From IMG/VR virus record IMGVR_UViG_2531839433_000005, positions 1 to 49,376 of that record: 49,376 nt of DNA. The stretch is one strand, 5' to 3'. The notes under the pieces are model-generated. The model made no database searches. It was not told the origin of the DNA and saw nothing but the letters and a program-made list of their open reading frames with translations. This stretch comes from a virus (Duplodnaviria > Heunggongvirae > Uroviricota > Caudoviricetes). A program made the position numbers and the translations under genes. Every line of letters begins with the position of its first letter. Position 1 is the first letter of the stretch. Shown piece after piece: positions 1 through 49,376 of this stretch.

Positions 1-1131
1 TCAAATGACCAGTTTTTTCCACTCCTTACCACGTGCATCGTTGTAAATATCGGTCATTTTTTGATTCGAATGGCCAAGCAAAATTTGGGTGTCGATCCCT
101 TGCTCCCTGAACAAACGCTCCGACAATGATCGCTGTTCATGGAAAGAGGGTGGGGTACCATTAGCGCACCAGTTGTAATCTACAGAGTCCCGCGCTTTTT
201 TAAATGCAACTGTTAACGTTGCTGGCTTAACCATCCCGCCGCGCTTGGCTGTCCCTTTCGCATGATGGTGGTGCAATAGCCACGGACTAAGAACGCAATC
301 GCGACAGGATGACACCACATCATCCAGGGTGAGATTTAATTTATTGCAACGCAGAGCAAGAGGGATGGCAATCCGGGTTCCTGTTTTTTGCTGTTCGACA
401 TGAAGATAACCATCCCGGATATCCGAAAATTGCATTTTGCAAATATCTGAAAGGCGCTGGCCTGTCATCAGTGCCAGCAGCATGCCGCGCTGTAAAAAGT
501 AACCATCCTTTTCCGCTGCGTTATAAATCATCATCCACTCATCAAAAGTCAGTCGCTGTCTTGATATCCGCACCTGCGGTTTTTTTGCCGATTCTGCAGG
601 GTTAAAGCCTGGCGGAACATCGCCTGTTTGCTGAGCTTCTCGGAAAACATCGATCAGTACCTTCCTGAAAATTTGTCCCATTCTGTTATGTCCTCTGGCC
701 TTGTACTCTTCCAGCACCGATACCACATCTTTTACGGTTATGGCATCTAACGGTCTGGTGCCAAAACGTTCATCAAATACCCTGAGAGGGGCCGCTTTTT
801 GTTTCAGCGTGTTGAGTTTGATCTCTCCGTTTTCATATCTTTCCTGTTGAATTTTTCTGTAATTATTCAGAAAAATGGAAACGGTTGATGAACCGCCGGT
901 ATCATTAATAATTTTCTCCTGCAGACTGAGCATTTGTTTCATTTGCTGCCTGGCAAGACGGCTGTTCGCTTCTGCTGCAATAGTTTCTGCCAGTTTCTGG
1001 TCAATACTGCCGAGACCGTGATTTTTGCCTGTTATGGGATGCCTGTAACGCCAGTAAACTTTGTTATTTCTTTTGTCAAAATACGGAGATAATCCCGGAA
1101 CATCAGTTTTATATTTTCGCGGGCGCGCCAT
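1..1131 (-). CDS. int: Phage tyrosine integrase
   Basis: 376-aa ORF at the prophage end; C-terminal region carries R (TGQRLSD), HxxR (FHEQRS) and terminal Tyr (MTDIY) motifs typical of tyrosine recombinases; start overlaps the xis-like ORF. Confidence 0.85.
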   Translation of the reverse strand: MARPRKYKTDVPGLSPYFDKRNNKVYWRYRHPITGKNHGLGSIDQKLAETIAAEANSRLARQQMKQMLSLQEKIINDTGGSSTVSIFLNNYRKIQQERYENGEIKLNTLKQKAAPLRVFDERFGTRPLDAITVKDVVSVLEEYKARGHNRMGQIFRKVLIDVFREAQQTGDVPPGFNPAESAKKPQVRISRQRLTFDEWMMIYNAAEKDGYFLQRGMLLALMTGQRLSDICKMQFSDIRDGYLHVEQQKTGTRIAIPLALRCNKLNLTLDDVVSSCRDCVLSPWLLHHHHAKGTAKRGGMVKPATLTVAFKKARDSVDYNWCANGTPPSFHEQRSLSERLFREQGIDTQILLGHSNQKMTDIYNDARGKEWKKLVI

Positions 1132-1357
1132 CTTCCAGTATCCTCTTCAAGGCTGGGTGATCTGTAGCGATCACCTCCGGCTTGTTTACCATTCCGACAA
1201 AGCGAGCTTGCGGATCCACTCGCCAGTGTCTTCCAACTTTTTTGGGAAGAGGAAATATCATTCCGGCTTTAGCGTATTTACTTAACGTGCCCGGAGTAGG
1301 GACCGGATCGCTGAATTCCTCTTTTGCCCACTCAGTGAGCAGAATAAGTCTTGCCAT
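1109..1357 (-). CDS. xis: Excisionase-like small DNA-binding protein
   Basis: 82-aa basic ORF immediately upstream of and overlapping int on the same strand, the usual xis position. Confidence 0.55.
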   Translation of the reverse strand: MARLILLTEWAKEEFSDPVPTPGTLSKYAKAGMIFPLPKKVGRHWRVDPQARFVGMVNKPEVIATDHPALKRILEDGAPAKI

Positions 1358-1421
1358 GAGCGTCGTTCGCTAATCATGGTCGTCGCCACTATAGCTGGTG
1401 GGCGACGACCGGGGTTGAACA

Positions 1422-3893
1422 TTAAAAATCAGCCTGACTCGGGATCAGTTTTTGCCAGATAGCTGAAACGTATTTTGCCTGGTAACGAGCGTCATCAAGT
1501 GCATTATGGCGCTCACCTTCGAATGGGATAGCAGTTCTGGCATCGAAGTCTATGGCTTTCCCCAGCTCAACGATTGTGCGTACATCGCGATCGTTGTAGT
1601 AACGCCACGGGCAGGGGATCCCCTGCCGCTCGTATGAACGGCGCAAAATAGTGTTGTCGAAGTTGGCTCCATTTCCCCAGACCTGAACAAAAAATTCACC
1701 GGAGTTTTCGTCGATAAATTCCCGCAATTGTAACAGTGCATCATCTAACGGGATTTCATCGGTCATAATGGCAGATTGCGCTTCGCGTGATTGTTTAAGC
1801 CACCATTTAATGGTGTCCCGATCAATGACTCCGCCAGCAGTTTCCAGATCGATAGTCTTACTAAATTCCGGTCCCATATCTCCGGTTTGCGGATCGAAAA
1901 ATATTGCACCTATTGAGATAATCGGGGCATCGGGATTTTTTCCCATGGTTTCAAGGTCGATCATCAGATGAATCCCCGCTCTGCTGGTGGATGTGAGATT
2001 ATGATGACCGTTCGCCTTAATTAAGGGATCTGACGCCTCGCCAGTTTCACTATCGCTGGCATGATGCTGATTGCCGCCAGTGTTCTCCTTGTGCTGATGC
2101 GCAGTGCCTTCCATTTCCTCCGGATCATTTTCCTGAACTTCAGGCTGATTCTCTCCATCGAATATTTCCTGGTATGTTGCGTCACCCATCACCGCACCAC
2201 AATCAGGGCAGTTGCCGCCACCGCTCTGACCGCAGGCGGTGCAGATCTTTTCCGGTTCCTGTTGCACTACTGGTTCAGGTTGTTTCGTTTCTGGCTCGTT
2301 TTGTTGCGTATTTGGGCTGTTTTGTTCCGCTTTCTGGTCGTTCTGTTCCGTTTCTTGCTGGTTCTGGTTCGCAGAATCGCGGGTCTGGATCCCCTTAACC
2401 CATTTCGGATCATTCGGGTCGCTAATCCCTTCAACAAATTCACCACGTGATACTGCAAGCAGTTCATCGGCGTCAGGCTGGCTGATATTGGCTGCCTGCA
2501 TAATTTTGTTTACTTCGTCAGCGGTAACTTTTACTGACCCTGGTTGTGCGGTCGTGTCAGATGCACCAGTATTTTGTTGTGAACCTGAGTATGTACCGTT
2601 TTTGCGGGCGAAATATTCTTCTTTCGTGATTTCAGTAGCCCCAGCAGACAGCGCCTTATCCAGACCAGAAAGTTTGTTTGCGCGACCGTATTTTTCGCCA
2701 TCCTTGTCGGTGAAGAGGAAGTAGAACGGCCCCTCACGTTCTACAGATGGTTCGACTTCCACTTTGCATTCGGTTTTTTCGTTGTCTGGAATTGCCGTTT
2801 CCACTGCATCAGTTTCTGGTACTGGCGACGAGAGAGTATCAGTTGCGCTCTGATTTGTTCCTTCATCTTCAAACACGCCCTTTGTAGTCAGGTATTCAGT
2901 AATGTATTTGTTCAGTGCCACAGGGTCTTTGTGAATGTCGATCGGACGTTCACGGACAAGGCCAAAAATAGTCTGGCGGTCGTAGCGAAGGGCATCAGGC
3001 TGTTTGCGCATTGATGCCGAGATACGCTTCCAGTCTTCGCGGTCGTTGTCGATAACTTCATTTTTTGCCCAGCGATGGATGCTGCCGTCAATGTTTCCGG
3101 CATCCACATCACCAGGCCAGAGAGCGTAGGCCAGTTCGTCATCCAGTGTTTTCCATGTCTGCTTGTATTCGCGATGAATGGCAGCAATGACCAGGTTGAT
3201 TTTTCCTGTTGAATTTTCAGTGTGCTGTTGATTGGCTCTGGCGCGGGCGAGATCAACAACAGACGTGTATTTTCCGGTTTCCTTGCGTTCACCTTCGCGA
3301 CGTTTTTTCCAGATGCGCATCTCTGCCTGAATTTCGGGCCATTTGGCACCAGGCTTACATTTATGCTTAACCCACCCGATGGCATGCAGCTTAAGCTCCG
3401 GATACATGGCGTTAACTTCTGGCATTTTCATCAACGCTTCAACGATATGTCCGTCGAATGTTGCCATGTCTTCCTGCAACAATTCCTGCGCGCTAATCAC
3501 CATATCAACGGTGATGTTTTCACATGTGTCGAACTTAACCATGACAGCGTTCTGTACTTCAGGGGCCAGCTTGTCAAAAGTGACGTTCATCGGATCTGAT
3601 TCAGTCTCAACCGGGACAAAGGAAGCAGACTCCTCATCCCAGCGGTTTTCCTGCATATATTCAGCATCCCAGGAATCGAGGGCAGGGCGGGGTATACCGG
3701 GTTTATCCTCGCAAACAAGAAATTTATAAGCGCAGTCCTGAGCAGCCGGATAATGTTCCAGGAATTGCCAGTGAAATTTTGCTCGTGCACGGCGTTCGTC
3801 GCCAGCTTCAATGGCTGTGGCTACAGCCACAGCGCCTTCTTCCCTTGTTGCCAGTTCGTCAGGAATAGCGGCGCAAATAAAGACTTTACTCAT
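1422..3893 (-). CDS. Putative exonuclease with C-terminal DnaQ-like (DEDDh) 3'-5' exonuclease domain
   Basis: 823-aa ORF; C-terminal motifs LMIDLETMG (Exo I), WGNGANFD (Exo II), HNALDDARYQ (Exo III); Cys-rich CTACGQ..CPDCG zinc-ribbon-like motif; Q/E/N-rich linker encoded by imperfect 21-bp tandem repeats. Confidence 0.7.
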   Translation of the reverse strand: MSKVFICAAIPDELATREEGAVAVATAIEAGDERRARAKFHWQFLEHYPAAQDCAYKFLVCEDKPGIPRPALDSWDAEYMQENRWDEESASFVPVETESDPMNVTFDKLAPEVQNAVMVKFDTCENITVDMVISAQELLQEDMATFDGHIVEALMKMPEVNAMYPELKLHAIGWVKHKCKPGAKWPEIQAEMRIWKKRREGERKETGKYTSVVDLARARANQQHTENSTGKINLVIAAIHREYKQTWKTLDDELAYALWPGDVDAGNIDGSIHRWAKNEVIDNDREDWKRISASMRKQPDALRYDRQTIFGLVRERPIDIHKDPVALNKYITEYLTTKGVFEDEGTNQSATDTLSSPVPETDAVETAIPDNEKTECKVEVEPSVEREGPFYFLFTDKDGEKYGRANKLSGLDKALSAGATEITKEEYFARKNGTYSGSQQNTGASDTTAQPGSVKVTADEVNKIMQAANISQPDADELLAVSRGEFVEGISDPNDPKWVKGIQTRDSANQNQQETEQNDQKAEQNSPNTQQNEPETKQPEPVVQQEPEKICTACGQSGGGNCPDCGAVMGDATYQEIFDGENQPEVQENDPEEMEGTAHQHKENTGGNQHHASDSETGEASDPLIKANGHHNLTSTSRAGIHLMIDLETMGKNPDAPIISIGAIFFDPQTGDMGPEFSKTIDLETAGGVIDRDTIKWWLKQSREAQSAIMTDEIPLDDALLQLREFIDENSGEFFVQVWGNGANFDNTILRRSYERQGIPCPWRYYNDRDVRTIVELGKAIDFDARTAIPFEGERHNALDDARYQAKYVSAIWQKLIPSQADF

Positions 3894-4016
3894 TTTGTTT
3901 TAACCTCATGACAGATTTAAGGATGAACAAATCCCTGCCATTGCTGGCATATAAGAATCAAATCTGATGTATTCATTAAGCTGAATGTCGTATTGTGGCA
4001 GTTATTTTATTACTGC

Positions 4017-4238
4017 TCACCATGACTCTGCTTTTACAGGTAAACCATCACGACCAAGGAAGACTTTAATCATGGTTTCCTTAATACAGTGTTGTGTGGA
4101 AAAATCACGAATATAGAGCCGTTGTTTTTTAATGTTGTTTACCGAAGCAATATATGTTCTTCCTTTATGAATAACATAATCACCGGGAGTCACGCACTGA
4201 CGAGGAATCTCATCAGTTCCGAAGTGATGAGCAATCAT
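4017..4238 (-). CDS. Hypothetical small protein
   Basis: ORF with GGAG Shine-Dalgarno upstream of the second in-frame ATG; first ATG at 4250 is an alternative start. Confidence 0.4.
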
Positions 4239-4800
4239 AATTATCTCCATTTTTACAAATGAACTTTGTTGATGCGGTGCCTGGTGCCTCCAGGTGACGT
4301 TAACCAGTTAACAATTAACGCCGGATACAGAGAACCCACCCATAACACTGTTTTTGGTTTTAACTGTTCCGCGTGCGCTTAGCCGCATTCACCGCATCAC
4401 AAAATTCACTTTAAAAAGGGCGGCAGAGCAGTCACGGAGTAAACTGATACCGCCAAACGCCACCAGAAAATTGATAACAGAGGGCGTTGTAGCGGGGTTG
4501 TCACTTAAGCGTATGGTCAACCTGACAACCCGGTGTCCTCAACGGGGAAGGAATAACCCCGCCATACTTACCGCCGCGCCATTTCGCGGATTGCCACAAC
4601 CGGAAGCGCACGGTCGAATTAAATTTAACGACACCGTACAGTGAGACGAACTTCGCCGTGCGCTTTCGCGTTATGCCCTGACTTTTCAGGAAAATGCCCT
4701 TTCAGTAAACTGTCAGTGCCGGATGCTCACCCGTGTCCGGCGCACGCACTCCACCTGACCCGTGGAGAACTCCTTAATTACCAACCCTCAGGAGGGTGAA

Positions 4801-5022
4801 ATGACTAGTAAAAATGTAAATATCCAGTTTAACCACGATGTTTCTCCTGCTGGACTTGCGGATGAGCTCACTGCTATAAAAACGGCAATTATGCTACTTG
4901 CTGCTAAGTTGCCTGCGTCATCAAAGCCAGCGGAAATTTGTGACTCATTGCGTAAGATGAATTCAACAAAATGCAATGAGATGGCATCACTTATTGAAAG
5001 TGCAATTGATTTTAATGATTAA
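4801..5022 (+). CDS. Hypothetical small protein (plus-strand gene inside leftward operon)
   Basis: ORF preceded by strong RBS AGGAGGG; 3' end overlaps the convergent ORF 5012..5386 by 11 bp; longer form would start at 4762. Confidence 0.4.
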   Translation: MTSKNVNIQFNHDVSPAGLADELTAIKTAIMLLAAKLPASSKPAEICDSLRKMNSTKCNEMASLIESAIDFND

Positions 5023-5386
5023 TCGAAATTTCATGGCTAACTGTAACACTCCCATCTGTGGCGGGATGGTTTAAATCGCTGGGATTAATGCCGCACTCAG
5101 TAAAATGGTTCTTAAGGGGTTCTATCCGAATCCCTTTCTTTTTCATTAACAAGCCAAAACCCTTATCAATGATATCCATTAATTCCAGGAAGTATTTTTC
5201 ATGTAAATCCTGGTTATCAGAGAGCTGCTTCTCTTCGTACAGACCGATAAAGGCACGACGCACGTTACCGGATATAGTATCGATGGTTTCTTTTTCTACG
5301 GTACTCAGGTCAAGAGTCGCCAGTTGGGAACGAACTATATTCGCTGCCATTTCCTGGAATTGCATTGGTAAATCTTTAAATTCCAT
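5012..5386 (-). CDS. Hypothetical protein
   Basis: 124-aa ORF, tightly packed with the downstream small leftward ORFs. Confidence 0.45.
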   Translation of the reverse strand: MEFKDLPMQFQEMAANIVRSQLATLDLSTVEKETIDTISGNVRRAFIGLYEEKQLSDNQDLHEKYFLELMDIIDKGFGLLMKKKGIRIEPLKNHFTECGINPSDLNHPATDGSVTVSHEISINH

Positions 5387-5408
5387 TATTAGCCTCGTTG
5401 GTTAGCTA

Positions 5409-5627
5409 TTAACGCGGGCATGTAATCATTCTGGCAATGCTTAATGCCGCTGCTTTTTCCAGCCTGGTGATATCCTGCTCCAGAGCGGACAGATTTTCAG
5501 CCTGCTTAGCCCTGGCTTCATTGGCCCATTTCAGGTCCTGCGCAGCCTTAATTTTCTGGTGCATCCACTCATAAAGTTCATCATCGGTATAGTCTGGCGC
5601 GATGATGACGGGTTCTCGTTTCTGCAT
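5409..5627 (-). CDS. Hypothetical small protein (early-left region)
   Basis: 72-aa ORF in leftward early operon; size and position reminiscent of Kil-type small proteins, but no sequence assignment possible. Confidence 0.45.
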   Translation of the reverse strand: MQKREPVIIAPDYTDDELYEWMHQKIKAAQDLKWANEARAKQAENLSALEQDITRLEKAAALSIARMITCPR

Positions 5628-5656
5628 ACTGATTCCTCGCGGTGCTGCTTCGCTTA

Positions 5657-5785
5657 TCAGCCGTTAGATTTTGCCGGGCTGGAAAGCGCCTGTATAAACT
5701 CACTGAAGCTGAGAGCTTCTTCGCCTTTGGCAAGGCCTTCGAAGTATTCTTCGTAAGCCTTTTCCATGATTGTGTCGAAATCCAT
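5657..5785 (-). CDS. Hypothetical very small protein (42 aa)
   Basis: Short ORF not in the supplied track; AGGTGA Shine-Dalgarno upstream of ATG; fills the gap between neighbouring leftward genes. Confidence 0.3.
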   Translation of the reverse strand: MDFDTIMEKAYEEYFEGLAKGEEALSFSEFIQALSSPAKSNG

Positions 5786-5786
5786 A

Positions 5787-5942
5787 TCACTCACCTGAGT
5801 TTCTTTTCAGCCAGCGACGGGCACCATTTTCGGTTTTAAACGTTTTGCTTTTGGTATACGTCATCGCGGTGAACGTACCGTCCTGGTTGGGGAACACGCC
5901 ACATACCAGAGATTCGTTGTTGCCAAGATCGATAGTATCCAT
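5787..5942 (-). CDS. Hypothetical small protein (51 aa; longer 78-aa form possible to 6023)
   Basis: Internal ATG preceded by GAGG RBS; first gene downstream of the presumed pL region. Confidence 0.35.
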   Translation of the reverse strand: MDTIDLGNNESLVCGVFPNQDGTFTAMTYTKSKTFKTENGARRWLKRNSGE

Positions 5943-6023
5943 GTTGACCTCATTTCCCCTTAACGCCGGGGTAGCGGAACAAAAACCTGCTGCATAGTTA
6001 TTAAAGTTGAACCCTGCCGTCAT

Positions 6024-6234
6024 GTTCTTACGCCTCGGGCTGGCTACTTAACCCCTGACCACTGCCGGGTAACTCGAAGTATTGCCCTGCATTCTGTGGG
6101 GTGGAGTGAAGGAATGAATGAAGTTTAGAAAAATGAACTTTACAGGTCAATGTTTTTTTATCAAAACATTTTAAGCAGGCAGCTGTTAAGCCATCACCAC
6201 GATGGCATACAGTTAATCAAATAGATGAGGTTGG
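6024..6234. promoter_or_regulatory. Presumed leftward early promoter/operator region (pL-like)
   Basis: 210-bp non-coding gap between the cI stop and the first leftward early gene; contains TTTTGAT/ATCAAAA half-site-like motifs similar to those between cI and cro. Confidence 0.3.
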
Positions 6235-6873
6235 TTAAATATCTTGTTGAATTTTAAAGCATACGCCCAATATGCAAGATAGATCATCCAGCATAATTGA
6301 AGGGTAGCGAGGATTCGTGGGGACTAAAAGAATATCCGGCCCTTCTATCTCCAGTTTACGAATGACAGGTGTTGTGGTCCCTTTGGGTAAGGCAAGGACA
6401 ATATTTCCTGGTTGTACGGTTCGATCGGGATCAACAAAAACTGTTGAACCATTTGGGATGGAAACTCCCCCACCAGATGTTGACATACTGTCACTCTCTA
6501 GAACAACTGCAAAGGTATTGGCCGGGATTTCTCCGACAAGCTGCACACAAGAGGTTATTGAGGAATTTTTCATATAATCACTCCAGCTTGCTGCCTGCTG
6601 AAGTGATAGTAGCGGAACCGTTTTTATCGGCGGTAAAGATAGATCAAGCGAATCACCTGTATTTAACTCTCCTCCATTAAGAAGCCAATTTTCGTTTACT
6701 TTCAATATCTTTGCCAGTGAACTTATGTAACGCGAGGACGGCGCTCCTCCACCGTTCATCCATTGACTTACGGAGCCTTTTGATGCGCCAGTGGCATTGA
6801 CAAGGTCTTTGCCTTTCAGGTTTAGCGCATGCATACGTTGGGTTATGCGTTCAGATATTGTTTGCTTGCTCAT
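6235..6873 (-). CDS. cI: CI-type prophage repressor (XRE HTH + S24 LexA-like peptidase domain)
   Basis: 212 aa; N-terminal HTH; C-terminal DSMS Ser motif and downstream Lys (VIRKL) as in LexA/CI autocleavage domains; divergent from a Cro-like gene. Confidence 0.85.
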   Translation of the reverse strand: MSKQTISERITQRMHALNLKGKDLVNATGASKGSVSQWMNGGGAPSSRYISSLAKILKVNENWLLNGGELNTGDSLDLSLPPIKTVPLLSLQQAASWSDYMKNSSITSCVQLVGEIPANTFAVVLESDSMSTSGGGVSIPNGSTVFVDPDRTVQPGNIVLALPKGTTTPVIRKLEIEGPDILLVPTNPRYPSIMLDDLSCILGVCFKIQQDI

Positions 6874-6964
6874 GTTTTGATTTTAAAACACAGATGGTTT
6901 TGTTTCTTGACTTTCTTTGGTTTTGATTATTAAACTTTTGGCGTTCAGTTTTATGGAGCGACTC
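6874..6964. promoter_or_regulatory. Immunity operator/promoter region (oR, pR/pRM-like)
   Basis: Divergent intergenic region; repeated GTTTTGATT(T/A)TTAAAAC-like motifs at 6874..6891 and 6919..6935; candidate -35 TTGACT 6907..6912 and -10 TATTAA 6928..6933 reading toward cro. Confidence 0.4.
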
Positions 6965-7195
6965 ATGAAAAAATCAGAAGTATTAGGCTATTTTGGCGGA
7001 GTTGTTAAAACAGCCGCAGCTCTAGGAACGTCAAAAACCACAGTCAGCATGTGGGGGGAAGAGGTTCCGTGGAAATGGGCGTTGCTAATTCAGGCAGTCA
7101 CTGCCGGGGCGCTCAAATATGAGTTACACATACCGACGGTTGTCATTCCCGGTTCTGATCATAATCCGCCTTCTAACCAAGGGGGGGATTCATGA
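6965..7195 (+). CDS. Cro-like small HTH regulator
   Basis: 76-aa ORF divergent from cI with GGAG RBS; resembles Rac-type YdaS/Cro proteins as recalled. Confidence 0.6.
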   Translation: MKKSEVLGYFGGVVKTAAALGTSKTTVSMWGEEVPWKWALLIQAVTAGALKYELHIPTVVIPGSDHNPPSNQGGDS

Positions 7196-17330: not shown

Positions 17331-17406
17331 GGCCCTTTAGCTCAGTGGTGAGAGCGAGCGACTCATAATCGCCAGGTCGCTGGTTCAAATCCAGCAAGGG
17401 CCACCA
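17331..17406 (+). tRNA. tRNA with CAT anticodon (Ile2/Met type)
   Basis: 76 nt; acceptor GGCCCTT/AAGGGCC, D-arm TAGCTCAGTGG, anticodon loop CTCATAA, T-loop GGTTCAAATCC, 3' CCA; resembles E. coli ileX as recalled. Confidence 0.75.
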
Positions 17407-17407
17407 A

Positions 17408-17484
17408 CCGTCACCAGTTCATCAGGAAAGAGCGTCAACCCTTTAAGTTGAGTGTGCGAGGTTCGAGTCCCCGGTGGCGGTCCA
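17408..17484 (+). tRNA. Atypical tRNA-like element (possible anticodon TTT; may be a pseudo-tRNA)
   Basis: Acceptor CCGTCAC/GTGGCGG with one G-U pair, T-loop TTCGAGT, 3' TCCA; D-arm and anticodon loop (C at position 33) are non-canonical. Confidence 0.35.
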
Positions 17485-17486
17485 GT

Positions 17487-17562
<76 letters not shown>

Positions 17563-17565
17563 TAT

Positions 17566-17640
<75 letters not shown>

Positions 17641-19402: not shown

Positions 19403-20974
19403 TTACTGAGAGCTCAGATCAACTTTCCAGGGCAACAGATCGCGTACCCGGTTTGCCGGCCAGTCCTGGATATGTTCAATGACGTAGCGCAGCCACTTTT
19501 CTGGCTCCACATTGTTCAGACGGCATGTGCCGATCAGCGAGTACAACACCGCCGCATGTTCACCACCGCTGTCGGAACCCGCGAACATCCACTTTTTCCG
19601 GCCTACGGCCACTCCCCGTAAGGCGTTCTCTGCGATGTTGTTGTCGATTTCCACCCAGCCATTACTGCAGTACACGTTCAGTGCATCCCACTGTTTCAGC
19701 AGGTATGCGAACGCTTTTGCCGTATCTGAGTGACGCGACAGTGTTTTCATCTGTTGCTGTATCCAGTCATACAGTGACTGCATCAGTGGCGCGGCTCTGG
19801 TTTTTCTTGCCGCCAGACGCTGTTCTGCTGAACAGCCCCGGACCTCTGCCTCGATGGCATACAGTTCACCGATACGCTGCAGGGCTTCCGTGGTGATGTC
19901 GGTGGGCGCTCTTGCATGCACATCGTGGATTTTTCTCCGGGCATGAGCCATACACGCGGCTTCCGTTATTCTGCCGGATTCGTATAACGCCCGGTAACCA
20001 CCGTAAGCATCGGCCTGAAGCACACCGCTGTAACCGGCCAGGTGATTTTGTGGATGGATACCTTTCCGGTCCGGACTGTACGCGAACCAGACCGCCGGGG
20101 GCATCTGTGAACCGGCGTTACGGTCATCACGGACGTAGACCCACAGCCGGGCTGTCCGGGTTTTACCGCTGCCCGGCTCCTGGACCGGGACGGGGATATC
20201 ATCAGCATGGACTTTACCGGGCATCAGCACATACTGGCGCAGGACGTCATACAGCGGCTCCAGTAGTTCAGCAACGGCACCTGTCCAGCGCCCCAGTGTG
20301 GCACGGCTCAGCTCCACACCCTGACGGCGGTATATCTCTGACTGGCGGTATAACGGCAGATGGTCTGCATATTTTCCGGTGACGACATGGGCCAGGAGCC
20401 CCGCTCCGGCATAACTGCGTGCAATGGGTTTTGAAGGTACTGGTGCCTGCACGATATGGTCGCACCGACAACAGGCCAGTTTCGGACGTTGTGTTTCGAT
20501 AACCTTAAAGGCGCTGCTGATAAGCTCCAGTTGCTCTGACACATCACATCCCAGAGAACTGAGTTCACCACCACAGGCAGGACAGCATTCCTCTTCCGGC
20601 CGGATAACCCGGGTTTCACGGGGAAGTGAGGCCGGTAACGGTTTACGGGCTGAAGACTGGCGCAGGGCGGATGGCAGTACCGGGTCATATTGCTCACCCA
20701 GCGTTTCCGCCATTTCTTCCTGAAGTGCGCTGATTCGCTCCTGTGCTTCCTGTATCTGCCGTTCGGTTTTTGCACGAAGTTTTTCTGAGCTTTTACCGAA
20801 CTGCATACGTTGCAGTTTCGCAACCAGCGCCTTCAGCCGGTTGATTTCGGAAGCATAAGCCGCCACCCGCTGTGAGAGCAGGCGGTTGTATTCAGCCATC
20901 TGGCGGATGGTGTCCTGTTGCGTCTGCAACAGTGCCCGCAGGCGGGCGTTCTCATGAGCAAGTGAGGTGTCCAT
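19403..20974 (-). CDS. IS66-family transposase (TnpC/orfC)
   Basis: 523 aa; N-terminal coiled-coil/leucine zipper, CxxC zinc-finger-like motifs, DDE-type core as in IS66 transposases. Confidence 0.85.
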
Positions 20975-20993
20975 ATCCTCACTTTACAACGGG

Positions 20994-21341
20994 TTATATG
21001 CGGATTCCAGCGCGTTCCGTTCGTTTCGGGTGCTTCCAGTTGATACCTTCAAGAAGCATGGATAACTGAGCCGGAGTAAGGTGCACCTTGCCGTCACGGG
21101 TGACTGGCCAGACGAAGCGGCCCCGCTCCAGGCGTTTGGTGAAGAGGCACAGTCCGTCACTGTCAGCCCACAACACTTTTATCTGGTCACCCCGGCGTCC
21201 GCGGAAGATGAACAGGTGTCCGGAGAACGGGTCATCCTTCAGGACGTTCTGAACTTTTGATGCCAGGCCGTTAAAGCCATTTCGCATATCGGTGATACCT
21301 GCAACCAGCCAGATACGCGAACCTGCAGGGAGAGATATCAT
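20994..21341 (-). CDS. IS66 accessory protein TnpB (orfB)
   Basis: 115-aa ORF in the characteristic position, overlapping the orfA stop. Confidence 0.8.
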   Translation of the reverse strand: MISLPAGSRIWLVAGITDMRNGFNGLASKVQNVLKDDPFSGHLFIFRGRRGDQIKVLWADSDGLCLFTKRLERGRFVWPVTRDGKVHLTPAQLSMLLEGINWKHPKRTERAGIRI

Positions 21342-22018
21342 CAGTGGCTGCTCCCTTTTATTTCGCGGATAAGTGTCTGTAATAACGCCGGCGTCAGTTT
21401 ACCTTTAAGCCTGAGAGTTCCGGCCGGCAGAACCAGCTCACAACACAGACTGTCGGACGGTGTATTTATCTGCTCTGGTTCCTGTGCGGGGGCCGGGATT
21501 TTATTATCCGGCTCCGGCGTTAACGTCACGGGAAGCAGTGCCGGCATATTTTTTCCGGAAGGCAGCAGGCCACCTTTCCGGTATTGATGGCGCCAGTTGA
21601 AGAGCAGGTTATCGTTGATTCCGTTTTCCCGGGCGATCTGCGCCACACAGGCTCCGGGCTGCAGTGACTGCTCCACTAAGGCGATTTTAAACTCATAAGG
21701 GAAGTTGGGCCGCCGGGGACGTTTTTTTACCACGGGGGCTTCGGATATAACGGTGCTTTCAGGACGTACGACTGGTACCGTGGAAAATTGTCCGTAAAGG
21801 CAGGCATCAAGTTCCTGCTCCGACATGCCTGCGGGCAAAGGCCACGAAAGGCCAGCTCTCCGAAAGCGCACGAACATACTACAAACTGTTGATTTTGGTA
21901 CACCCAGGCGACGCCCGGCCACAACCCGGGGTAAATGTTCTTCAAAGTGAAGACGTAAAGCTTCAGTGATCCAGGTCCGGTGTTTCATACGATAGTGTCC
22001 ATTAAAAATGATGGACAT
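21341..22018 (-). CDS. IS66 accessory protein TnpA (orfA)
   Basis: 225-aa ORF at the upstream end of the IS; HTH-like N-terminus. Confidence 0.7.
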   Translation of the reverse strand: MSIIFNGHYRMKHRTWITEALRLHFEEHLPRVVAGRRLGVPKSTVCSMFVRFRRAGLSWPLPAGMSEQELDACLYGQFSTVPVVRPESTVISEAPVVKKRPRRPNFPYEFKIALVEQSLQPGACVAQIARENGINDNLLFNWRHQYRKGGLLPSGKNMPALLPVTLTPEPDNKIPAPAQEPEQINTPSDSLCCELVLPAGTLRLKGKLTPALLQTLIREIKGSSH

Positions 22019-42700: not shown

Positions 42701-45676
42701 GTGAGTATGGCAGTAAAGATTTCAGGTGTACTGAAAGATGGTGCAGGTAAGCCGATACAAAACTGCACCATTCAGCTAAAGGCCAGGCGCAACAGCACCA
42801 CGGTGGTGGTGAACACAGTGGCCTCAGAAAACCCGGATGAAGCCGGGCGTTACACAATGGACGTCGAGTATGGTCAGTACAGCGTCAGTCTGTTGGTGGA
42901 GGGATTCCCGCCGTCACACGCCGGGATTATCACTGTATATGAGGACTCAAAGCCGGGCACACTGAATGATTTCCTCGGTGCAATGACGGAGGATGATGTC
43001 CGGCCAGAGGCACTGCGCCGTTTTGAACTGATGGTGGAAGAGGTGGCGCGTAACGCGTCCGCAGTGGCACAGAACACGGCAGCTGCGAAGAAGTCAGCCA
43101 GCGATGCCAGCACATCAGCCCGTGAGGCGGCAACCCATGCGACTGATGCTGCAGACTCAGCACGCGCAGCCAGCACGTCAGCCGGACAGGCCGCGACGTC
43201 GGCTCGGTCAGCGTCTTCCAGCGCAGGAACGGCATCAACAAAGGCCAGTGAAGCAGCGAAAAGTGCTGCTGCTGCAGAGTCATCAAAAAGCGCGGCAGCT
43301 ACCAGCGCCAGTGCCGCGAAAACGTCAGAAACGAATGCCGCAGCATCACAAAAATCGGCAGCCACTTCTGCATCCACAGCGACCACGAAGGCGTCAGAAG
43401 CTGCCACCTCGGCACGGGGTGCGGCGGCCTCAAAAGAGGCAGCGAAATCATCAGAAACGAATGCATCATCAAGTGCCAGTAGTGCAGCTTCCTCGGCAAC
43501 GGCGGCAGGAAATTCCGCGAAGGCGGCAAAAACGTCCGAGACGAACGCCAGGTCTTCTGAAACAGCAGCGGGACAGAGCGCCTCAGCTGCGGCAGGTTCA
43601 AAAACAGCGGCTGCGTCGTCTGCCAGTGCCGCGTCAACAAGTGCCGGGCAGGCCTCAGCCAGTGCCACCGCCGCCGGAAAATCGGCAGAAAGCGCCGCAT
43701 CATCCGCTTCAACAGCCACAACGAAGGCTGGCGAAGCCACTGAGCAGGCCACTGCAGCAGCGAGGTCTGCTTCTGCAGCAAAAACCTCTGAAACAAATGC
43801 AAAGACTTCAGCAGACAATGCTGCTTCCTCTAAGGCGGCAGCCGCATCGTCCGCTGGTTCAGCGGCGTCATCGGCATCATCTGCGTCTGCTTCAAAAGAT
43901 GAGGCGACCAGACAAGCGTCAGCAGCGAAAGGTAGTGCCACGACAGCAACAACGAAAGCATCAGAGGCGGCAGGCAGTGCGACGGCTGCATCTCAGAGCA
44001 AAGTTGCTGCTGAATCCGCGGCAACGCGTGCCGAAACAGCAGCAAAACGGGCAGAGGATATTGCTGATGCCGTATCTCTGGAAGATGCGAGCACGACGAA
44101 AAAAGGTGTGGTTCAGCTTAGTAGTGCAACCAATAGCACATCTGAAACGCAGGCTGCAACGCCGAAAGCAGTAAAGGCCGCGTATGACCTTGCTGGCGCA
44201 AAATATACCGCTCAGGACGCCACGACGGCACAAAAAGGGATAGTCCAGCTCAGTAGTGCCACCAACAGCACGTCTGAAACACTGGCTGCGACACCGAAAG
44301 CGGTTAAGGCGGTAATGGATGAAACAAATAAGAAAGCCCCATTAAACAGCCCGGCGCTGACCGGAACGCCAACAACGCCAACTGCGCCAAAAGGGACTAA
44401 TAATACTCAGATCGCAAGCACGGCTTATGTGATGGCCGCGATTGCCGCACTTGTAGATTCGTCACCTGATGCACTGAACACGCTGAACGAGCTGGCGGCG
44501 GCGCTGGGCAACGACCCGAATTTTGCGACCACCATGACTAACGCGCTTGCGGGTAAGCAACCGAAAGATGCCACCCTGACGGCGCTGGCCGGGCTTGCTA
44601 CTGCGGCAGACAAGTTTCCGTATTTTACGGGGAATGATGTCGCCAGCCTGGCAACTCTGACAAAAGTCGGGCGGGATATTCTTGCGAAATCGACCGTTGC
44701 CGCTGTTATCGAATACCTCGGTTTACAGGAAACGGTAAATCAGGCTTCTGGCGCATTACAGAAAAACCAGAACGGCGCAGATATTCCGGGAAAAGATACC
44801 TTCACCAAAAATATTGGGGCCTGCCGCGCATATAGCGCATGGCTGAATATTGGTGGCGATAGTCAGGCCTGGACAACCGCGCAATTTATTTCGTGGCTGG
44901 AGAGTCAGGGAGCATTTAACCATCCTTACTGGATGTGCAAAGGCTCATGGGCTTATGCAAATAATAAGGTCATTACAGATACAGGTTGCGGAAATATTTG
45001 TCTTGCAGGTGCTGTGGTGGAAGTTATTGGCACTCGCGGCGCAATGACCATACGCGTTACTACGCCGAGCACGTCCAGCGGCGGCGGAATTACTAACGCT
45101 CAATTCACCTATATTAATCATGGTGATGCTTATGCTCCTGGCTGGCGACGAGACTACAACACGAAAAACCAGCAGCCTGCATTTGCTTTAGGGCAGACAG
45201 GAAGCAGGGTTGCAAATGATAAAGCTGTTGGCTGGAACTGGAATAGCGGTGTTTATGATGCAGATATCAAAGGCGCAACAGCATTAATACTCCACTTCAA
45301 TATGAATACGGGGAGTTGCCCTGCCGTACAGTTCCGTGTGAATTACAGGAACGGCGGTATCTTTTATCGTTCAGCGCGTGATGGTTATGGCTTTGAAGAT
45401 AACTGGTCAGCGTTTTACACCACAACCTACAAACCCTCTGCGGGGGATGTTGGTGCATATACCAAAGCGGAATGTAACTCAAAGTTTATTACAGGTATTC
45501 GTCTGGGCGGTCTGTCATCTGTTCAGACATGGAATGGTCCCGGCTGGTCTGACAGGTCAGGTTATGTCGTTACGGGTTCAGTTAACGGAAACCGTGATGA
45601 ATTAATTGATACAACACAGGCAAGGCCAGTTCAGTATTGCATTAATGGAACGTGGTATAACGCGGGGAGTATTTAA
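42701..45676 (+). CDS. stf: Side tail fibre protein (Stf-like) with invertible C-terminal part
   Basis: 991 aa; conserved N-terminus, long Ala/Ser/Thr-rich repeat region, two copies of the tail-fibre repeat (..VQLSSATNSTSET.AATPKAVK..), C-terminal domain encoded inside the invertible segment. Confidence 0.85.
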   Translation: MSMAVKISGVLKDGAGKPIQNCTIQLKARRNSTTVVVNTVASENPDEAGRYTMDVEYGQYSVSLLVEGFPPSHAGIITVYEDSKPGTLNDFLGAMTEDDVRPEALRRFELMVEEVARNASAVAQNTAAAKKSASDASTSAREAATHATDAADSARAASTSAGQAATSARSASSSAGTASTKASEAAKSAAAAESSKSAAATSASAAKTSETNAAASQKSAATSASTATTKASEAATSARGAAASKEAAKSSETNASSSASSAASSATAAGNSAKAAKTSETNARSSETAAGQSASAAAGSKTAAASSASAASTSAGQASASATAAGKSAESAASSASTATTKAGEATEQATAAARSASAAKTSETNAKTSADNAASSKAAAASSAGSAASSASSASASKDEATRQASAAKGSATTATTKASEAAGSATAASQSKVAAESAATRAETAAKRAEDIADAVSLEDASTTKKGVVQLSSATNSTSETQAATPKAVKAAYDLAGAKYTAQDATTAQKGIVQLSSATNSTSETLAATPKAVKAVMDETNKKAPLNSPALTGTPTTPTAPKGTNNTQIASTAYVMAAIAALVDSSPDALNTLNELAAALGNDPNFATTMTNALAGKQPKDATLTALAGLATAADKFPYFTGNDVASLATLTKVGRDILAKSTVAAVIEYLGLQETVNQASGALQKNQNGADIPGKDTFTKNIGACRAYSAWLNIGGDSQAWTTAQFISWLESQGAFNHPYWMCKGSWAYANNKVITDTGCGNICLAGAVVEVIGTRGAMTIRVTTPSTSSGGGITNAQFTYINHGDAYAPGWRRDYNTKNQQPAFALGQTGSRVANDKAVGWNWNSGVYDADIKGATALILHFNMNTGSCPAVQFRVNYRNGGIFYRSARDGYGFEDNWSAFYTTTYKPSAGDVGAYTKAECNSKFITGIRLGGLSSVQTWNGPGWSDRSGYVVTGSVNGNRDELIDTTQARPVQYCINGTWYNAGSI
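44707..44732. other. Left crossover site of Gin/Pin-type inversion system
   Basis: TTATCGAATACCTCGGTTTACAGGAA, inverted copy of the site at 47921..47946; about 75 bp of near-identical flanking inverted repeat. Confidence 0.7.
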
Positions 45677-45678
45677 TC

Positions 45679-46212
45679 ATGATGCACTTAAAAAACATTA
45701 CTGCTGGCAATCCTAAAACAAAAGAGCAATACCAGCTAACAAAGCAATTTAACATCAAATGGCTTTATTCAGATGATGGAAAAAACTGGTATGAGGAACA
45801 AAAGAATTTCCGGCCAGACACATTGAAAATGGCCTATGACCATAACGGCGTTATTATTTGTATTGAAAAGGATGTTTCAGCAATTAATCCGGAAGGCGCA
45901 AGCGTCGTTGAATTACCTGATATTACAGCAAATCGCCGTGCTGATATTTCGGGTAAATGGATGTTCAAAGATGGCGTAGTGATAAAGCGAACTTATACCG
46001 AAGAGGAACAGAGGCAGCAGGCAGAGAATGAAAAGCAAAGCCTGTTGCAACTTGTCAGGGATAAAACCCAGCTATGGGACTCACAGCTACGGCTGGGCAT
46101 CATTTCCGACGAGAATAAACAAAAATTAACCGAGTGGATGCTCTATGCGCAGAAAGTCGAATCTACAGACACCTCCAGCCTGCCAGTAACATTTCCCGAA
46201 CAACCTGAATGA
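45679..46212 (+). CDS. tfa: Tail fibre assembly protein (Tfa), orientation A
   Basis: 177 aa, N-terminus [21 protein letters not shown].. typical of the Tfa/gp38 chaperone family. Confidence 0.8.
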   Translation: MMHLKNITAGNPKTKEQYQLTKQFNIKWLYSDDGKNWYEEQKNFRPDTLKMAYDHNGVIICIEKDVSAINPEGASVVELPDITANRRADISGKWMFKDGVVIKRTYTEEEQRQQAENEKQSLLQLVRDKTQLWDSQLRLGIISDENKQKLTEWMLYAQKVESTDTSSLPVTFPEQPE

Positions 46213-46214
46213 GA

Positions 46215-46245
46215 CAAGGCCCGATAGCGGGCCTTAATTTTTATT
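46215..46245. terminator. Bidirectional hairpin terminator between convergent tfa genes
   Basis: AGGCCCG-ATAGC-GGGCCT hairpin with A/T-rich flanks. Confidence 0.5.
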
Positions 46246-46771
46246 CAGGCTTTTGTGGCCATTCAGGATTTGCCCTATCCACACGGCTGACCAGAACACT
46301 GTAGCGTTCCCATGCTTCCAGTCGTGTGCGTTCCTCGTCTGTTGCCATATTCAACCTGACAGCGCGTTCCAGCGGCTGGATGACTGATTCAGCTTCGGAA
46401 AGCAATGCGGCCTTTTGTGATTCGGCCTGTTGTTGCTGTTCGTCTGCCGTATAAATCCGTTTAACCACAGCTCCATCCTTAAACATCCACTTTCCTGAAT
46501 CATCAGCGCGGCGGTTGGCTGTAATATCTGGAACCTCGACAACGCTAAAACCTTCGGGATTAAGCGTGGATGCATCTTTGGTGATGGCGACAATAATATT
46601 ATTTGCATCGTAAACAATCTTTATTGTGTCTGGCTGAAAGTTTTTCACTTCCTCATACCAGTTTTTACCGTCTTCTGTATATAACCAGATAACATCAAAA
46701 TTCTTTGTTAGCTGATATTGCTCTTTTGTTTTTGGATTTCCTGACTTAATATTTTTTAAATGCTGCATCAT
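46241..46771 (-). CDS. tfa: Tail fibre assembly protein (Tfa'), orientation B
   Basis: 176 aa, paralogous to tfa on the opposite strand ([22 protein letters not shown]..). Confidence 0.8.
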
Positions 46772-47920
46772 TTACACCTGTGCGACGTTATACCATGTGC
46801 CATTGATGTATTTTTGTATTGGTCTGAAGATGGCTTCATCATCGCCATCTACTTCACCAATGATTCTTAATCCGGTAATTGCGTGTCCGGCTTTTTCATA
46901 GCGACCACCACGCGCCATCAATTGAACAACACGCGTACCCAGGCGAACATCTTTCACATAGCGGGAATCAAAATTCCCCCAGTTGCTGGGCTGCATCTGA
47001 CCGTTAACAGCAAATGTTACTGAGTTATCTGTATTTCGCTGACTATAGAAATGCCAGCCTGAATCATCACCAAGCTCTGCAACAGTTGGTCTTGATGAAG
47101 TGCCCCATAAATAAAACTTTGCGTTCTTCGTGGAGTTGTTGGAGCTGGATAGCGAGAATTTTTTACTATCACCTGCCTGAATGTTTTTAAAAGCAATAGC
47201 CACTCCATTCTGAAAGCGGAATACTCGCTGACTATTAGCGTAAACATCCAGAATACCATCACCATTCTGTTTAAATCCGGTATCATTATCACCCAAAACA
47301 ATCGAGTTACCGCCAAGAGCACTGGATGTTCCGATGCCCAGAGCACCATTCAATTGACCGCCAGATAATGACAACGCCCCAACCTCAGCAGCAGTCGGTT
47401 TAATGTGCGAACTGTAAATTACATATACAGTTCCATCTGTCAGGCCTGTTGGTTTATTCGCTGTATAAGTTGGTGATGTATGAATCGTTACGCTGGCGTT
47501 ACCGGTATAATCCCACTGAATATTAACACCTGTGGCGTAATTACCTATTTCAACATAAACATCATAGGTATCACCGGATGTATTCACCCATGCAATATTA
47601 GTAAATCCAGCCGATGTTCGTCGCCATAATGCACCAGTAATACCTTTTGGATTCCCATTTCCGGCACGCAGAACCAGCTCAGAGATGCCTGCCTGATGCG
47701 GGGCGCCAACGTTATACCCTGCGCCACCAATCAGGCTTATGTAAACCACGGAACTGGCTTGTGGCATTGTTACAGTTGCCAGTTTGAACCATCCAGCCCC
47801 ACCACTAAAAGACATGGTTGTTGAATTTGTTGTGCCGATATTACGCAGGAATAGTTTTTTATCGGGAATATCTGCGCCGTTCTGTTTTTTCTGTAATGCG
47901 CCAGAAGCCTGATTTACCGT
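46772..47920 (-). CDS. Alternative tail-fibre C-terminal variable segment (start-less in this orientation)
   Basis: Open frame on the minus strand from the right crossover site through a 347-aa ORF ending ..INGTWYNVAQV (cf. stf C-terminus ..INGTWYNAGSI); would be fused in frame to the constant stf 5' part after inversion. Confidence 0.6.
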   Translation of the reverse strand, partial: TVNQASGALQKKQNGADIPDKKLFLRNIGTTNSTTMSFSGGAGWFKLATVTMPQASSVVYISLIGGAGYNVGAPHQAGISELVLRAGNGNPKGITGALWRRTSAGFTNIAWVNTSGDTYDVYVEIGNYATGVNIQWDYTGNASVTIHTSPTYTANKPTGLTDGTVYVIYSSHIKPTAAEVGALSLSGGQLNGALGIGTSSALGGNSIVLGDNDTGFKQNGDGILDVYANSQRVFRFQNGVAIAFKNIQAGDSKKFSLSSSNNSTKNAKFYLWGTSSRPTVAELGDDSGWHFYSQRNTDNSVTFAVNGQMQPSNWGNFDSRYVKDVRLGTRVVQLMARGGRYEKAGHAITGLRIIGEVDGDDEAIFRPIQKYINGTWYNVAQV

Positions 47921-47946
47921 TTCCTGTAAACCGAGGTTTTAGATAA
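47921..47946. other. Right crossover site of Gin/Pin-type inversion system
   Basis: TTCCTGTAAACCGAGGTTTTAGATAA, resembles gix/hix/pix-type 26-bp sites as recalled; immediately upstream of the invertase start. Confidence 0.7.
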
Positions 47947-48000
47947 TGGCGGTTTCTGGCCTGCATGGCATGATTTGTGCTTTTGGACGGGAGATTCAGC

Positions 48001-48195
48001 GTGCTGATTGGCTATGTAAGGGTATCAACAAATGACCAGAATACAGACCTGCAACGAAACGCTCTTGTTTGTGCAGGATGTGAACAAATATTTGAAGATA
48101 AATTAAGCGGAACAAGGACAGGCCAACCTGGATTAAAACGTGCTTTAAAGCGCCTTCAAAAAGGTGACGCACTGGTTGTCTGGAAACTGGACTGA
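48001..48195 (+). pseudogene. Truncated serine DNA invertase (Pin/Gin/Hin family), N-terminal 64 codons only
   Basis: (V)LIGYVRVSTNDQNTDLQRNALVCAGCEQIFEDKLSGTRTG..LVVWKLD then stop; the catalytic-Ser region (YVRVST) is present but the rest of the catalytic domain and the C-terminal HTH are missing. Confidence 0.8.
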
Positions 48196-48233
48196 CTGGG
48201 TCACTGTATGCGGCATCTTGTCGTGCTGGTGGT

Positions 48234-48305
48234 GGAAGCCTGGAAAAAGTATCGGGTGTTGCTGAACCGTGTTGATACATCAACTGCACCTGATATTGAG
48301 TGGCC
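48234..48305 (+). repeat. 72-bp direct repeat, copy 1 (3' end of a Tfa gene; copy 2 at 49283..49354)
   Basis: GGAAGCCTGGAA(A/G)AAGTATCGGGTGTTGCTGAACCGTGTTGATACATCAAC(T/C)GCACCTGATATTGAGTGGCC; two mismatches between copies. Confidence 0.85.
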
Positions 48306-48381
48306 TACGAACCCTGTCAGGGAGTAATCATTGGGATTATGCCGCAGCACGTCTTAAGCAAGAACGTGCTGCGGTTGGATG

Positions 48382-49050
48382 CTATTTTTTCCCTGAAGCG
48401 GAAAACATTACTACAGTACCTTGAACCTTGGTTTTAACATTCTCGAAATGCTCTGAGAGTATATGTGTTAAGCCTTCTTCGGAATCTTTTGTGTTTGAAA
48501 AGATGCCTTTCTGATTGTAAATGCGCATCAGTTTTTGACCGAAGCTATTGTGCACAACTCCATCGCCAAGAATTGTGGCTCCGTATAGAGTTCCATCGTC
48601 AGTTAAGGCCTGCGCCGCATTGCGTATTACACAGCTTTTTGTAGATATATTTCCAGGCAGGCAGTGAAGAAGGTAAAACATGGAAATGGAATCAAATTGA
48701 CCATGTAACGCCGCGGGATAAGGATCAAAAACATCATGGCTAATTTTATGTTTAATTTTTGATTCCCCAGCCCTTGTAGATGCCGCGTTCAGGCTAGCTT
48801 CGTTCAAATCCATTAAAGATATCAGACTACTCTCAGGTACGTGAGTAAGGTAAAACCCAGTTCCAACACCAATATCCAGATGGTTGTTACCTAAATGTTC
48901 CAGAAAGTGTGGAAGAAGGTGTTCCTTTGTAGGACATCCCCATGCAAGCCGATTTGATACTCCCAAAACCCACCAGTCATAAAGCTTTAGGGTAAGTGGT
49001 GTGTAAATTTTAGCCCCATCATCTGTGTTTTTTTTCATTAATTTCACCAT
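48382..49050 (-). CDS. Class I SAM-dependent methyltransferase (cargo gene)
   Basis: 222 aa; motif I LDIGVGTGFY; AT-rich relative to the tail genes; flanked by the 72-bp direct repeats. Confidence 0.7.
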   Translation of the reverse strand: MVKLMKKNTDDGAKIYTPLTLKLYDWWVLGVSNRLAWGCPTKEHLLPHFLEHLGNNHLDIGVGTGFYLTHVPESSLISLMDLNEASLNAASTRAGESKIKHKISHDVFDPYPAALHGQFDSISMFYLLHCLPGNISTKSCVIRNAAQALTDDGTLYGATILGDGVVHNSFGQKLMRIYNQKGIFSNTKDSEEGLTHILSEHFENVKTKVQGTVVMFSASGKK

Positions 49051-49106
49051 GTTATAGTTTTATTTGTGAATTAAATCAATTGTGGCGATGAATTACAAGA
49101 GGTTAA

Positions 49107-49376
49107 ATGCTGCCGCAGCATAGCGATATTGAAATAGCCTGGTATGCTTCGATACAGCAGGAGCCGAATGGCTGGAAGACCGTCACCACACAGTTCTACA
49201 TCCAGGAATTCAGTGAGCATATTGCGCCACTTCAGGATGCTGTAGAGCTGGAGATCGCAACGGAGGAAGAAAACTCGTTGCTGGAAGCCTGGAAGAAGTA
49301 TCGGGTGTTGCTGAACCGTGTTGATACATCAACCGCACCTGATATTGAGTGGCCGGAAGAACCAGACACAATGTAA
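49107..49376 (+). pseudogene. Tail fibre assembly protein fragment (C-terminal part only)
   Basis: C-terminal ..[46 protein letters not shown].. matches Tfa C-termini; N-terminal part unrelated and preceded by AT-rich non-coding sequence. Confidence 0.6.

Follow-up and report, generated by a model that had tools for sequence, protein, structure and literature searches.

The tail-fibre gene stf of a lambda-like Escherichia coli prophage contains a Gin-type invertible segment that has inverted after the invertase gene beside it was truncated. The prophage, integrated in ompW, makes up the whole stretch of DNA analyzed here, 49,376 nucleotides long (IMG/VR virus record IMGVR_UViG_2531839433_000005, positions 1 to 49,376; hereafter, the window). 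The crossover sites, the fibre cassettes, a dead invertase, a kept enhancer sequence, and post-truncation inversion with crossover at the core were observed. We regard it as likely, with good confidence, that these are the parts of an orphan inversion switch in the stf gene of a defective lambdoid prophage, operated in trans. In the orientation found in the window, a fibre end of the Mu S′/U′ type would be expressed, and in the other orientation, an end with a tip of the P2 gpH type would be expressed together with a Mu U-type chaperone. The segment would be inverted by a Gin/Pin/Cin-family invertase from elsewhere in the cell, typically from a co-resident P2-like or Mu-like prophage; since both sites and a probable enhancer are intact, an invertase made elsewhere could act on it. 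We infer the identity of this trans-acting enzyme, the dependence on Fis, and any phenotypic output.

Invertible segment with two alternative fibre ends

The segment and its surroundings consist of the following features, with the strand in parentheses.

42707–44705 (+): constant part of stf, outside the segment, with the N-terminal prophage tail-fibre domain PF08400, Ala/Ser-rich repeats, and Phage_fiber_2 repeats (PF03406)

44706–44731 (−): left crossover site, gix-like, with core TC at 44718–44719; 24 of 26 positions equal the right site in inverted form

44720–47932 (no strand): invertible segment, 3213 bp between the cores; its in-silico inversion gives the prophage of E. coli 504239

44720–45676 (+): cassette X, the active variable C-terminus of Stf (989 aa in this orientation, orientation A)

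45679–46212 (+): tfa-X, the assembly chaperone gene paired with cassette X (PF02413; 96.6% identical to Mu U′)

46241–46771 (−): tfa-Y, the chaperone gene paired with the silent cassette (PF02413; 97.7% identical to P7 U′ and 93.7% to Mu U)

46772–47932 (−): cassette Y, the silent, start-less variable C-terminus, with a computed in-frame fusion after inversion

47921–47946 (+): right crossover site, gix-like, TTCCTGTAAACCGAGGTTTTAGATAA, with core GA at 47933–47934, found by pattern search

A repeat finder detected a 95-nt inverted repeat with 92% complementarity (44700–44794 and 47858–47952), in which the two crossover sites lie. When up to three mismatches were allowed, the 26-bp site had exactly two matches in the 49-kb window and none in 100 shuffled sequences. 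Both sites have the 12-2-12 layout, and their cores, TC on the left and GA on the right, show that the sites are inverted and the cores compatible, so that the pair of inverted 26-bp sites with matching core dinucleotides known from Gin, Cin, Pin, and Hin switches is present. The right site differs from the Mu site beside gin at 1 of 26 positions. A preliminary description of this DNA, made without database searches, had placed the left site at 44707–44732; the site is real, but its position was one base too far to the right. The inverted copy that it gave at 47921–47946 held on re-alignment, with two mismatches to the left site, and so did the near-identical inverted flank of about 75 nt, which extends from the core into the segment.

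The two alternative C-termini and their cognate chaperones lie on opposite strands, with the constant N-terminal part outside the segment, as judged from the open reading frames (ORFs) and Pfam matches. The crossover site is located at codon 671 of stf. After in-silico inversion, cassette Y joins the constant part in frame to give a Stf of 1057 aa, which is the protein annotated in 504239 (WP_000268769.1), and the 989-aa and 1057-aa forms are identical over their first 686 residues. The segment of about 3.2 kb with two stf C-termini and two tfa genes in the Mu G / P1 C arrangement, as first described, is thus borne out by ORFs, Pfam matches, and the two in-frame fusions. The assignment to Lambdoid Stf/Tfa proteins was supported by PF08400, PF03406, the downstream Caudo_TAP domain (PF02413), and the lom gene upstream of stf (42043–42642), which has an Ail/Lom Pfam match. 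In the protein look-up for Stf, the annotated ATG start at 42707 was matched, and the GTG start at 42701 gave no match.

Homology to Mu, P1, P7, and P2 agreed with the earlier identification of a Gin/Pin-type invertible tail-fibre segment. The cassette X protein has 94.6% amino-acid identity to the C-terminus of Mu S′ and to P7 gpS Sv, and positions 44750–46980 of the window have 90–96% nucleotide identity to the segments of P7, P1, D108, and Mu. Over its last 193 aa, which form the tip, cassette Y has about 91% identity to the gpH C-terminus of phage P2.

Within the constant part, positions 43082–44038 hold a periodic Ala/Ser-rich repeat of 33-nt units (e.g., AAKTSETNA) with irregular spacing. 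Three ORFs of 355, 356, and 167 aa, on the opposite strand or in other frames, overlap this repeat; they look like its by-products and are candidate non-genes.

Truncated invertase gene and retained enhancer-equivalent sequence

The region to the right of the segment contains the remains of the invertase gene.

48001–48195 (+): gin/pin stub, with a GTG start and 64 codons followed by TGA (48193–48195)

48019–48086 (no strand): recombinational-enhancer equivalent with predicted Fis sites, inside the stub, 86–153 bp from the right core

48230–48305 (+): tfa 3′ fragment joined to the stub, forming direct repeat D2 with 49279–49354 (96%); partial tfa in the 504239 annotation

An invertase cut off after 64 codons beside the right site had been noted before, and the GTG at 48001, the TGA at 48193–48195, and a partial profile match support it: in Pfam, the stub matched only positions 2–73 of the Resolvase profile, which has 145 positions. 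The stub was aligned with Mu gin, e14 pinE, and an intact homologue of 196 aa (L006) whose start codon is likewise GTG; in this alignment, the TGA takes the place of the conserved Arg codon in the KLDRLGR motif. Pfam detected no DNA-binding domain in the invertase fragment, and the gene adjacent to the segment is not an intact serine invertase of about 185–196 aa with a catalytic domain and a C-terminal helix-turn-helix. Residual homology to invertases ends at about 48233. The fusion at 48230–48305 reads as a deletion/replacement junction by which invertase codons of about 79–196 were removed. Judged by its reading frame, the invertase of the window is dead, with a nonsense codon at position 65 and the 3′ two-thirds replaced by the tfa fragment. 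The stub was assigned as a gin allele on the basis of its alignment to Mu gin (186/192 nt identical); the relationship to pinE and the sites of e14 is clearly more remote.

The stretch at 48019–48086, corresponding to nt 19–86 of the stub, is identical to Mu gin at 68 of 68 positions. In the GenBank record of P7, the cin enhancer is annotated at nt 19–86 of cin. The coding region of gin includes three Fis sites (PMC3378877), and in the Hin system, a 65-bp enhancer is located about 100 bp from hixL (PMC3798978). The identity to Mu gin, the P7 annotation, and these distances indicate that the stub retains a probable enhancer in its native position. The enhancer-equivalent stretch is probably intact, with its function and Fis dependence predicted from the alignment.

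A class I S-adenosylmethionine-dependent methyltransferase gene (48382–49050, minus strand) lies between two 76-nt direct repeats that are 96% identical. Both repeats are tfa 3′ ends (48230–49354 region), the first being the one fused to the invertase stub. This methyltransferase cassette accompanies the stub in many E. coli genomes, including those of the clone ST131.

Inversion after truncation in the lineage of the window

The prophage of E. coli 504239 (NZ_CP025859.1, 57366–106741) contains the same 64-codon recombinase fragment, and its segment is in the opposite orientation (orientation B). When 44720–47932 of the window was flipped in silico, the result differed from the 504239 prophage at just one of 49,376 nt, a single-nucleotide polymorphism (SNP) at 4652. 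Because the two prophages share the same stub and are one SNP apart, the flip came after the truncation.

Among complete genomes, the right junction of the window (orientation A) was found only in WS1933D, and the alternative junction (orientation B) was found in 55. The exact orientation-A Stf was present in seven draft assemblies, one of which was 100% identical to the window over 12.7 kb. The stub–tfa junction is old and was carried by 536 of 5426 complete E. coli genomes (~10%), as counted with a 211-nt probe covered by at least 80%.

WS1933D, which is also in orientation A, contains a recombinant patch. Compared with positions 41800–49376 of the window, it has 53 SNPs, all within a 1.2-kb patch at 44846–46053 (the end of cassette X and tfa-X), and is otherwise identical. 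The SNP pattern suggests that the patch came from another S′/U′ copy by recombination or gene conversion, and WS1933D holds many places related to S′/U′.

The preliminary description had called the segment a locked switch, in which loss of the invertase probably froze the orientation, and the orientations seen in databases would then have been fixed before the truncation. This explanation agrees with the certainly non-functional cis invertase, with the skew of the window-type cassettes in complete genomes (55 in orientation B versus 1 in orientation A), and with five orientation-B chromosomes that have no Gin/PinE/Cin-type gene, where the segment may be frozen in practice. However, an identical stub, with the TGA and the tfa fusion in the same places, flanks both orientations in prophages that differ by one SNP in 49,376 nt, and carriers of the dead invertase do not share one orientation. 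Both orientations also occur within the single clone ST131, as described below (143 versus 239 genomes). To save the locked switch, the identical double lesion would have to arise or be transferred repeatedly. As a general statement, it is already contradicted, and we consider it quite improbable. Independent recurrent truncation was also considered as an explanation and was rejected. The data point instead to what the description had added as a caveat, namely that another invertase acts in trans.

Crossover at the core in ST131

At ompW of the ST131 strain JJ1886, the same architecture was found with different cassettes and a stub that has decayed further. Junctions of the ST131 type were present in the JJ1886 form in 143 genomes and in the in-silico flipped form in 239, with the best 25 matches listed at 100% identity. 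Flipped examples include EC958, and genomes with related names formed pairs of opposite orientation (4/0 versus 4/1-1 and 4/4, and 2019_APHA versus 2017_APHA). EC958 has the same outer half-sites as JJ1886, but its inner half-sites (TTCTCG... and TTCCTG...) have traded places, so the exchange maps to about 11 bp around the central GA. Such an exchange of half-sites at the core is the signature of Gin-type site-specific recombination and not of homologous recombination. Inversion was seen in the 504239 flip and in the ST131 junctions, and exchange at the core in the JJ1886/EC958 pair.

The JJ1886 stub (L017, 6096–6275) has an extra TGG-to-TGA change a few codons ahead of the shared TGA. It also has SNPs within the enhancer-equivalent stretch; both orientations are common in ST131 nonetheless.

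RecA-dependent homologous recombination between the 95-nt inverted repeats would require no invertase. SNP mapping places the crossover in the lineage of the window only within a 51-nt block of perfect identity (44715–44765), which is compatible with rare homologous exchange; owing to this block, the flip in that lineage fits site-specific and homologous exchange alike. In the ST131 version, by contrast, inverted identity is confined to the 26-bp sites and amounts to about 12 bp inside them, yet both orientations are common and the exchange is at the core. A stretch of 12 bp is far too short for efficient RecA-dependent exchange. We judge this explanation to be very improbable.

The two orientations might also arise from mis-assembly across the inverted repeats. 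One draft contig in orientation A (L012, GCA_012388415.1) stops at window position 47911, inside the right inverted repeat; this break may reflect mixed orientations in the culture or may simply be repeat-induced. The repeats are, however, just 26–95 nt, below the length of a single read, and both orientations are shown by hundreds of independently finished genomes and by drafts that cover the region in full at 100% identity. The fibre gene is also complete and in frame in either orientation. An assembly artefact is thus extremely unlikely.

Candidate trans-acting invertases

Chromosomes were searched for Gin-type genes with a chimeric query consisting of a unique prophage marker and the 3′ half of a Gin-type gene, and the places per record were counted; these counts come without coordinates and carry no information on gene intactness. 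In a local control, the Gin-type probe detected gin, pinE, and cin and did not detect pinR. No place with a Gin/PinE/Cin-type 3′ half beyond the marker was counted in five orientation-B chromosomes (504239, 67-1, TW11681, S1-NGR-02-A, and LR883000), and three such places were counted in WS1933D, which is in orientation A. These counts fit a segment that would be frozen where a Gin/Pin-type enzyme is absent and flippable where one is present.

Published observations show that such an enzyme can act across prophages. PinQ and PinR of the Qin and Rac prophages invert the e14 P segment in trans (PMC12529663), an earlier case of a defective element whose switch is operated from outside, and the same study cites the action of PinE on Mu G and of Fin on the Salmonella H segment. 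For ST131, a preprint (10.1101/2022.05.07.487787) reports tail-fibre switching of a BP-4795-like prophage, confirmed by polymerase chain reaction, in a host where invertase genes are present only in the P88-like and phiE255-like prophages that reside with it.

Several points weigh against a trans-operated switch. The 51-nt identity block leaves room for homologous exchange in the lineage of the window, as stated above, and the enhancer function is read from sequence identity. FDAARGOS_1077, although in orientation B, had four places besides the marker when searched for Gin-type genes. A query with the 3′ half of pinR detected one PinR/Q-type gene in each of the seven chromosomes that share the identical prophage marker. 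The compared genomes are probably clonal, so that the association between enzyme and orientation amounts to very few independent observations. The window covers the prophage only, so that any trans-acting enzyme of its strain is putative; the enzyme search covered chromosomes, and assemblies show the majority orientation only.

We also entertain, as a rather unlikely extension, that the stub, enhancer, and sites have been kept as a "satellite" switch at ompW, in about 10% of E. coli genomes, that is driven by the invertases of P2-like or Mu-like prophages, or for a host-level role. If true, a satellite switch would couple fibre choice across co-resident prophages. A host-level role would be speculation by analogy with StfE2 of e14, for which receptor masking was shown.

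Prophage context and significance

The annotation of the twin prophage in 504239 follows the lambda-like order of morphogenesis genes. A frameshift breaks J (38497–41975) into two ORFs, one of 231 and one of 940 aa, and the gene is annotated as frameshifted in 504239. An IS66-family element, ISCro1 (tnpA, tnpB, and transposase), occupies about 19403–22018 between the lysis genes and terminase, according to the 504239 annotation, the sequence being identical there. With these lesions, the prophage is defective and probably does not form infectious particles.

In the 504239 annotation, three transfer RNA genes (Ile, Thr, and Gly) lie downstream of Q at about 17331–17640, and the early region (1–7000) is Rac-like, with kil, a dicB fragment, ydfC, and hokD. 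The integration at ompW adjoins yciE/yciF, or trpA in ST131.

A truncated invertase beside an invertible segment does not imply a fixed phase: what counts in cis is the sites and the probable enhancer, and a different prophage can supply the enzyme. Across hundreds of finished E. coli genomes, and within clones including ST131, the fibre gene at ompW is polymorphic in its orientation. This affects pan-genome and pseudogene calls, as annotation calls the fibre "incomplete" in one of the orientations, and the orientation is relevant when such prophages are used for host-range prediction. The kind of system is classical, operation in trans has precedents, and nothing is added mechanistically to the Gin/Pin paradigm; what is useful is the wide distribution of the stub locus and its polymorphism in orientation within clones.

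Comparison with known systems

The system of the window is most readily set beside the G segment of Mu. The gene order is the same (variable end, chaperone, second chaperone, second variable end, and then invertase), and identity extends to 25 of 26 positions of the right site, 186 of 192 nt of the stub, and 68 of 68 of the enhancer stretch. Cassette X is about 95–97% identical to S′/U′, and tfa-Y is 94% identical to U. The host element of the window, however, is lambdoid and has a constant part of the lambda Stf type, not that of Mu S; cassette Y has a tip like that of P2 gpH where Mu has the variable end of S, and the invertase is a 64-codon stub.

The C segments of P1 and P7 resemble the window in sequence, with 96% nucleotide identity between 44753–46986 and P7, and in the enhancer annotated in the 5′ end of cin. 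In these phages, cin is transcribed toward the segment and the enhancer lies about 0.5 kb from cixL, whereas the layout of the window is that of Mu. Nucleotide identity between cin and the stub is also only about 69%.

The P segment of e14, a cryptic E. coli prophage, is likewise a tail-fibre switch that the invertases of other prophages can flip (PMC12529663). It differs in that pinE is intact, the sites (TTCTCCCAAACCAACGTTTATGAAAA) and cassettes are different, and the segment is 1.8 kb long; moreover, a cell-level anti-phage role was shown for e14 and not for the prophage of the window. The BP-4795-like prophage of ST131 (10.1101/2022.05.07.487787) shares with the window a reversible fibre inversion in a lambdoid prophage without its own invertase. 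Its description does not include a stub, sites, or an enhancer; from that description, the locus probably belongs to the same ompW-locus family as those of JJ1886 and EC958.

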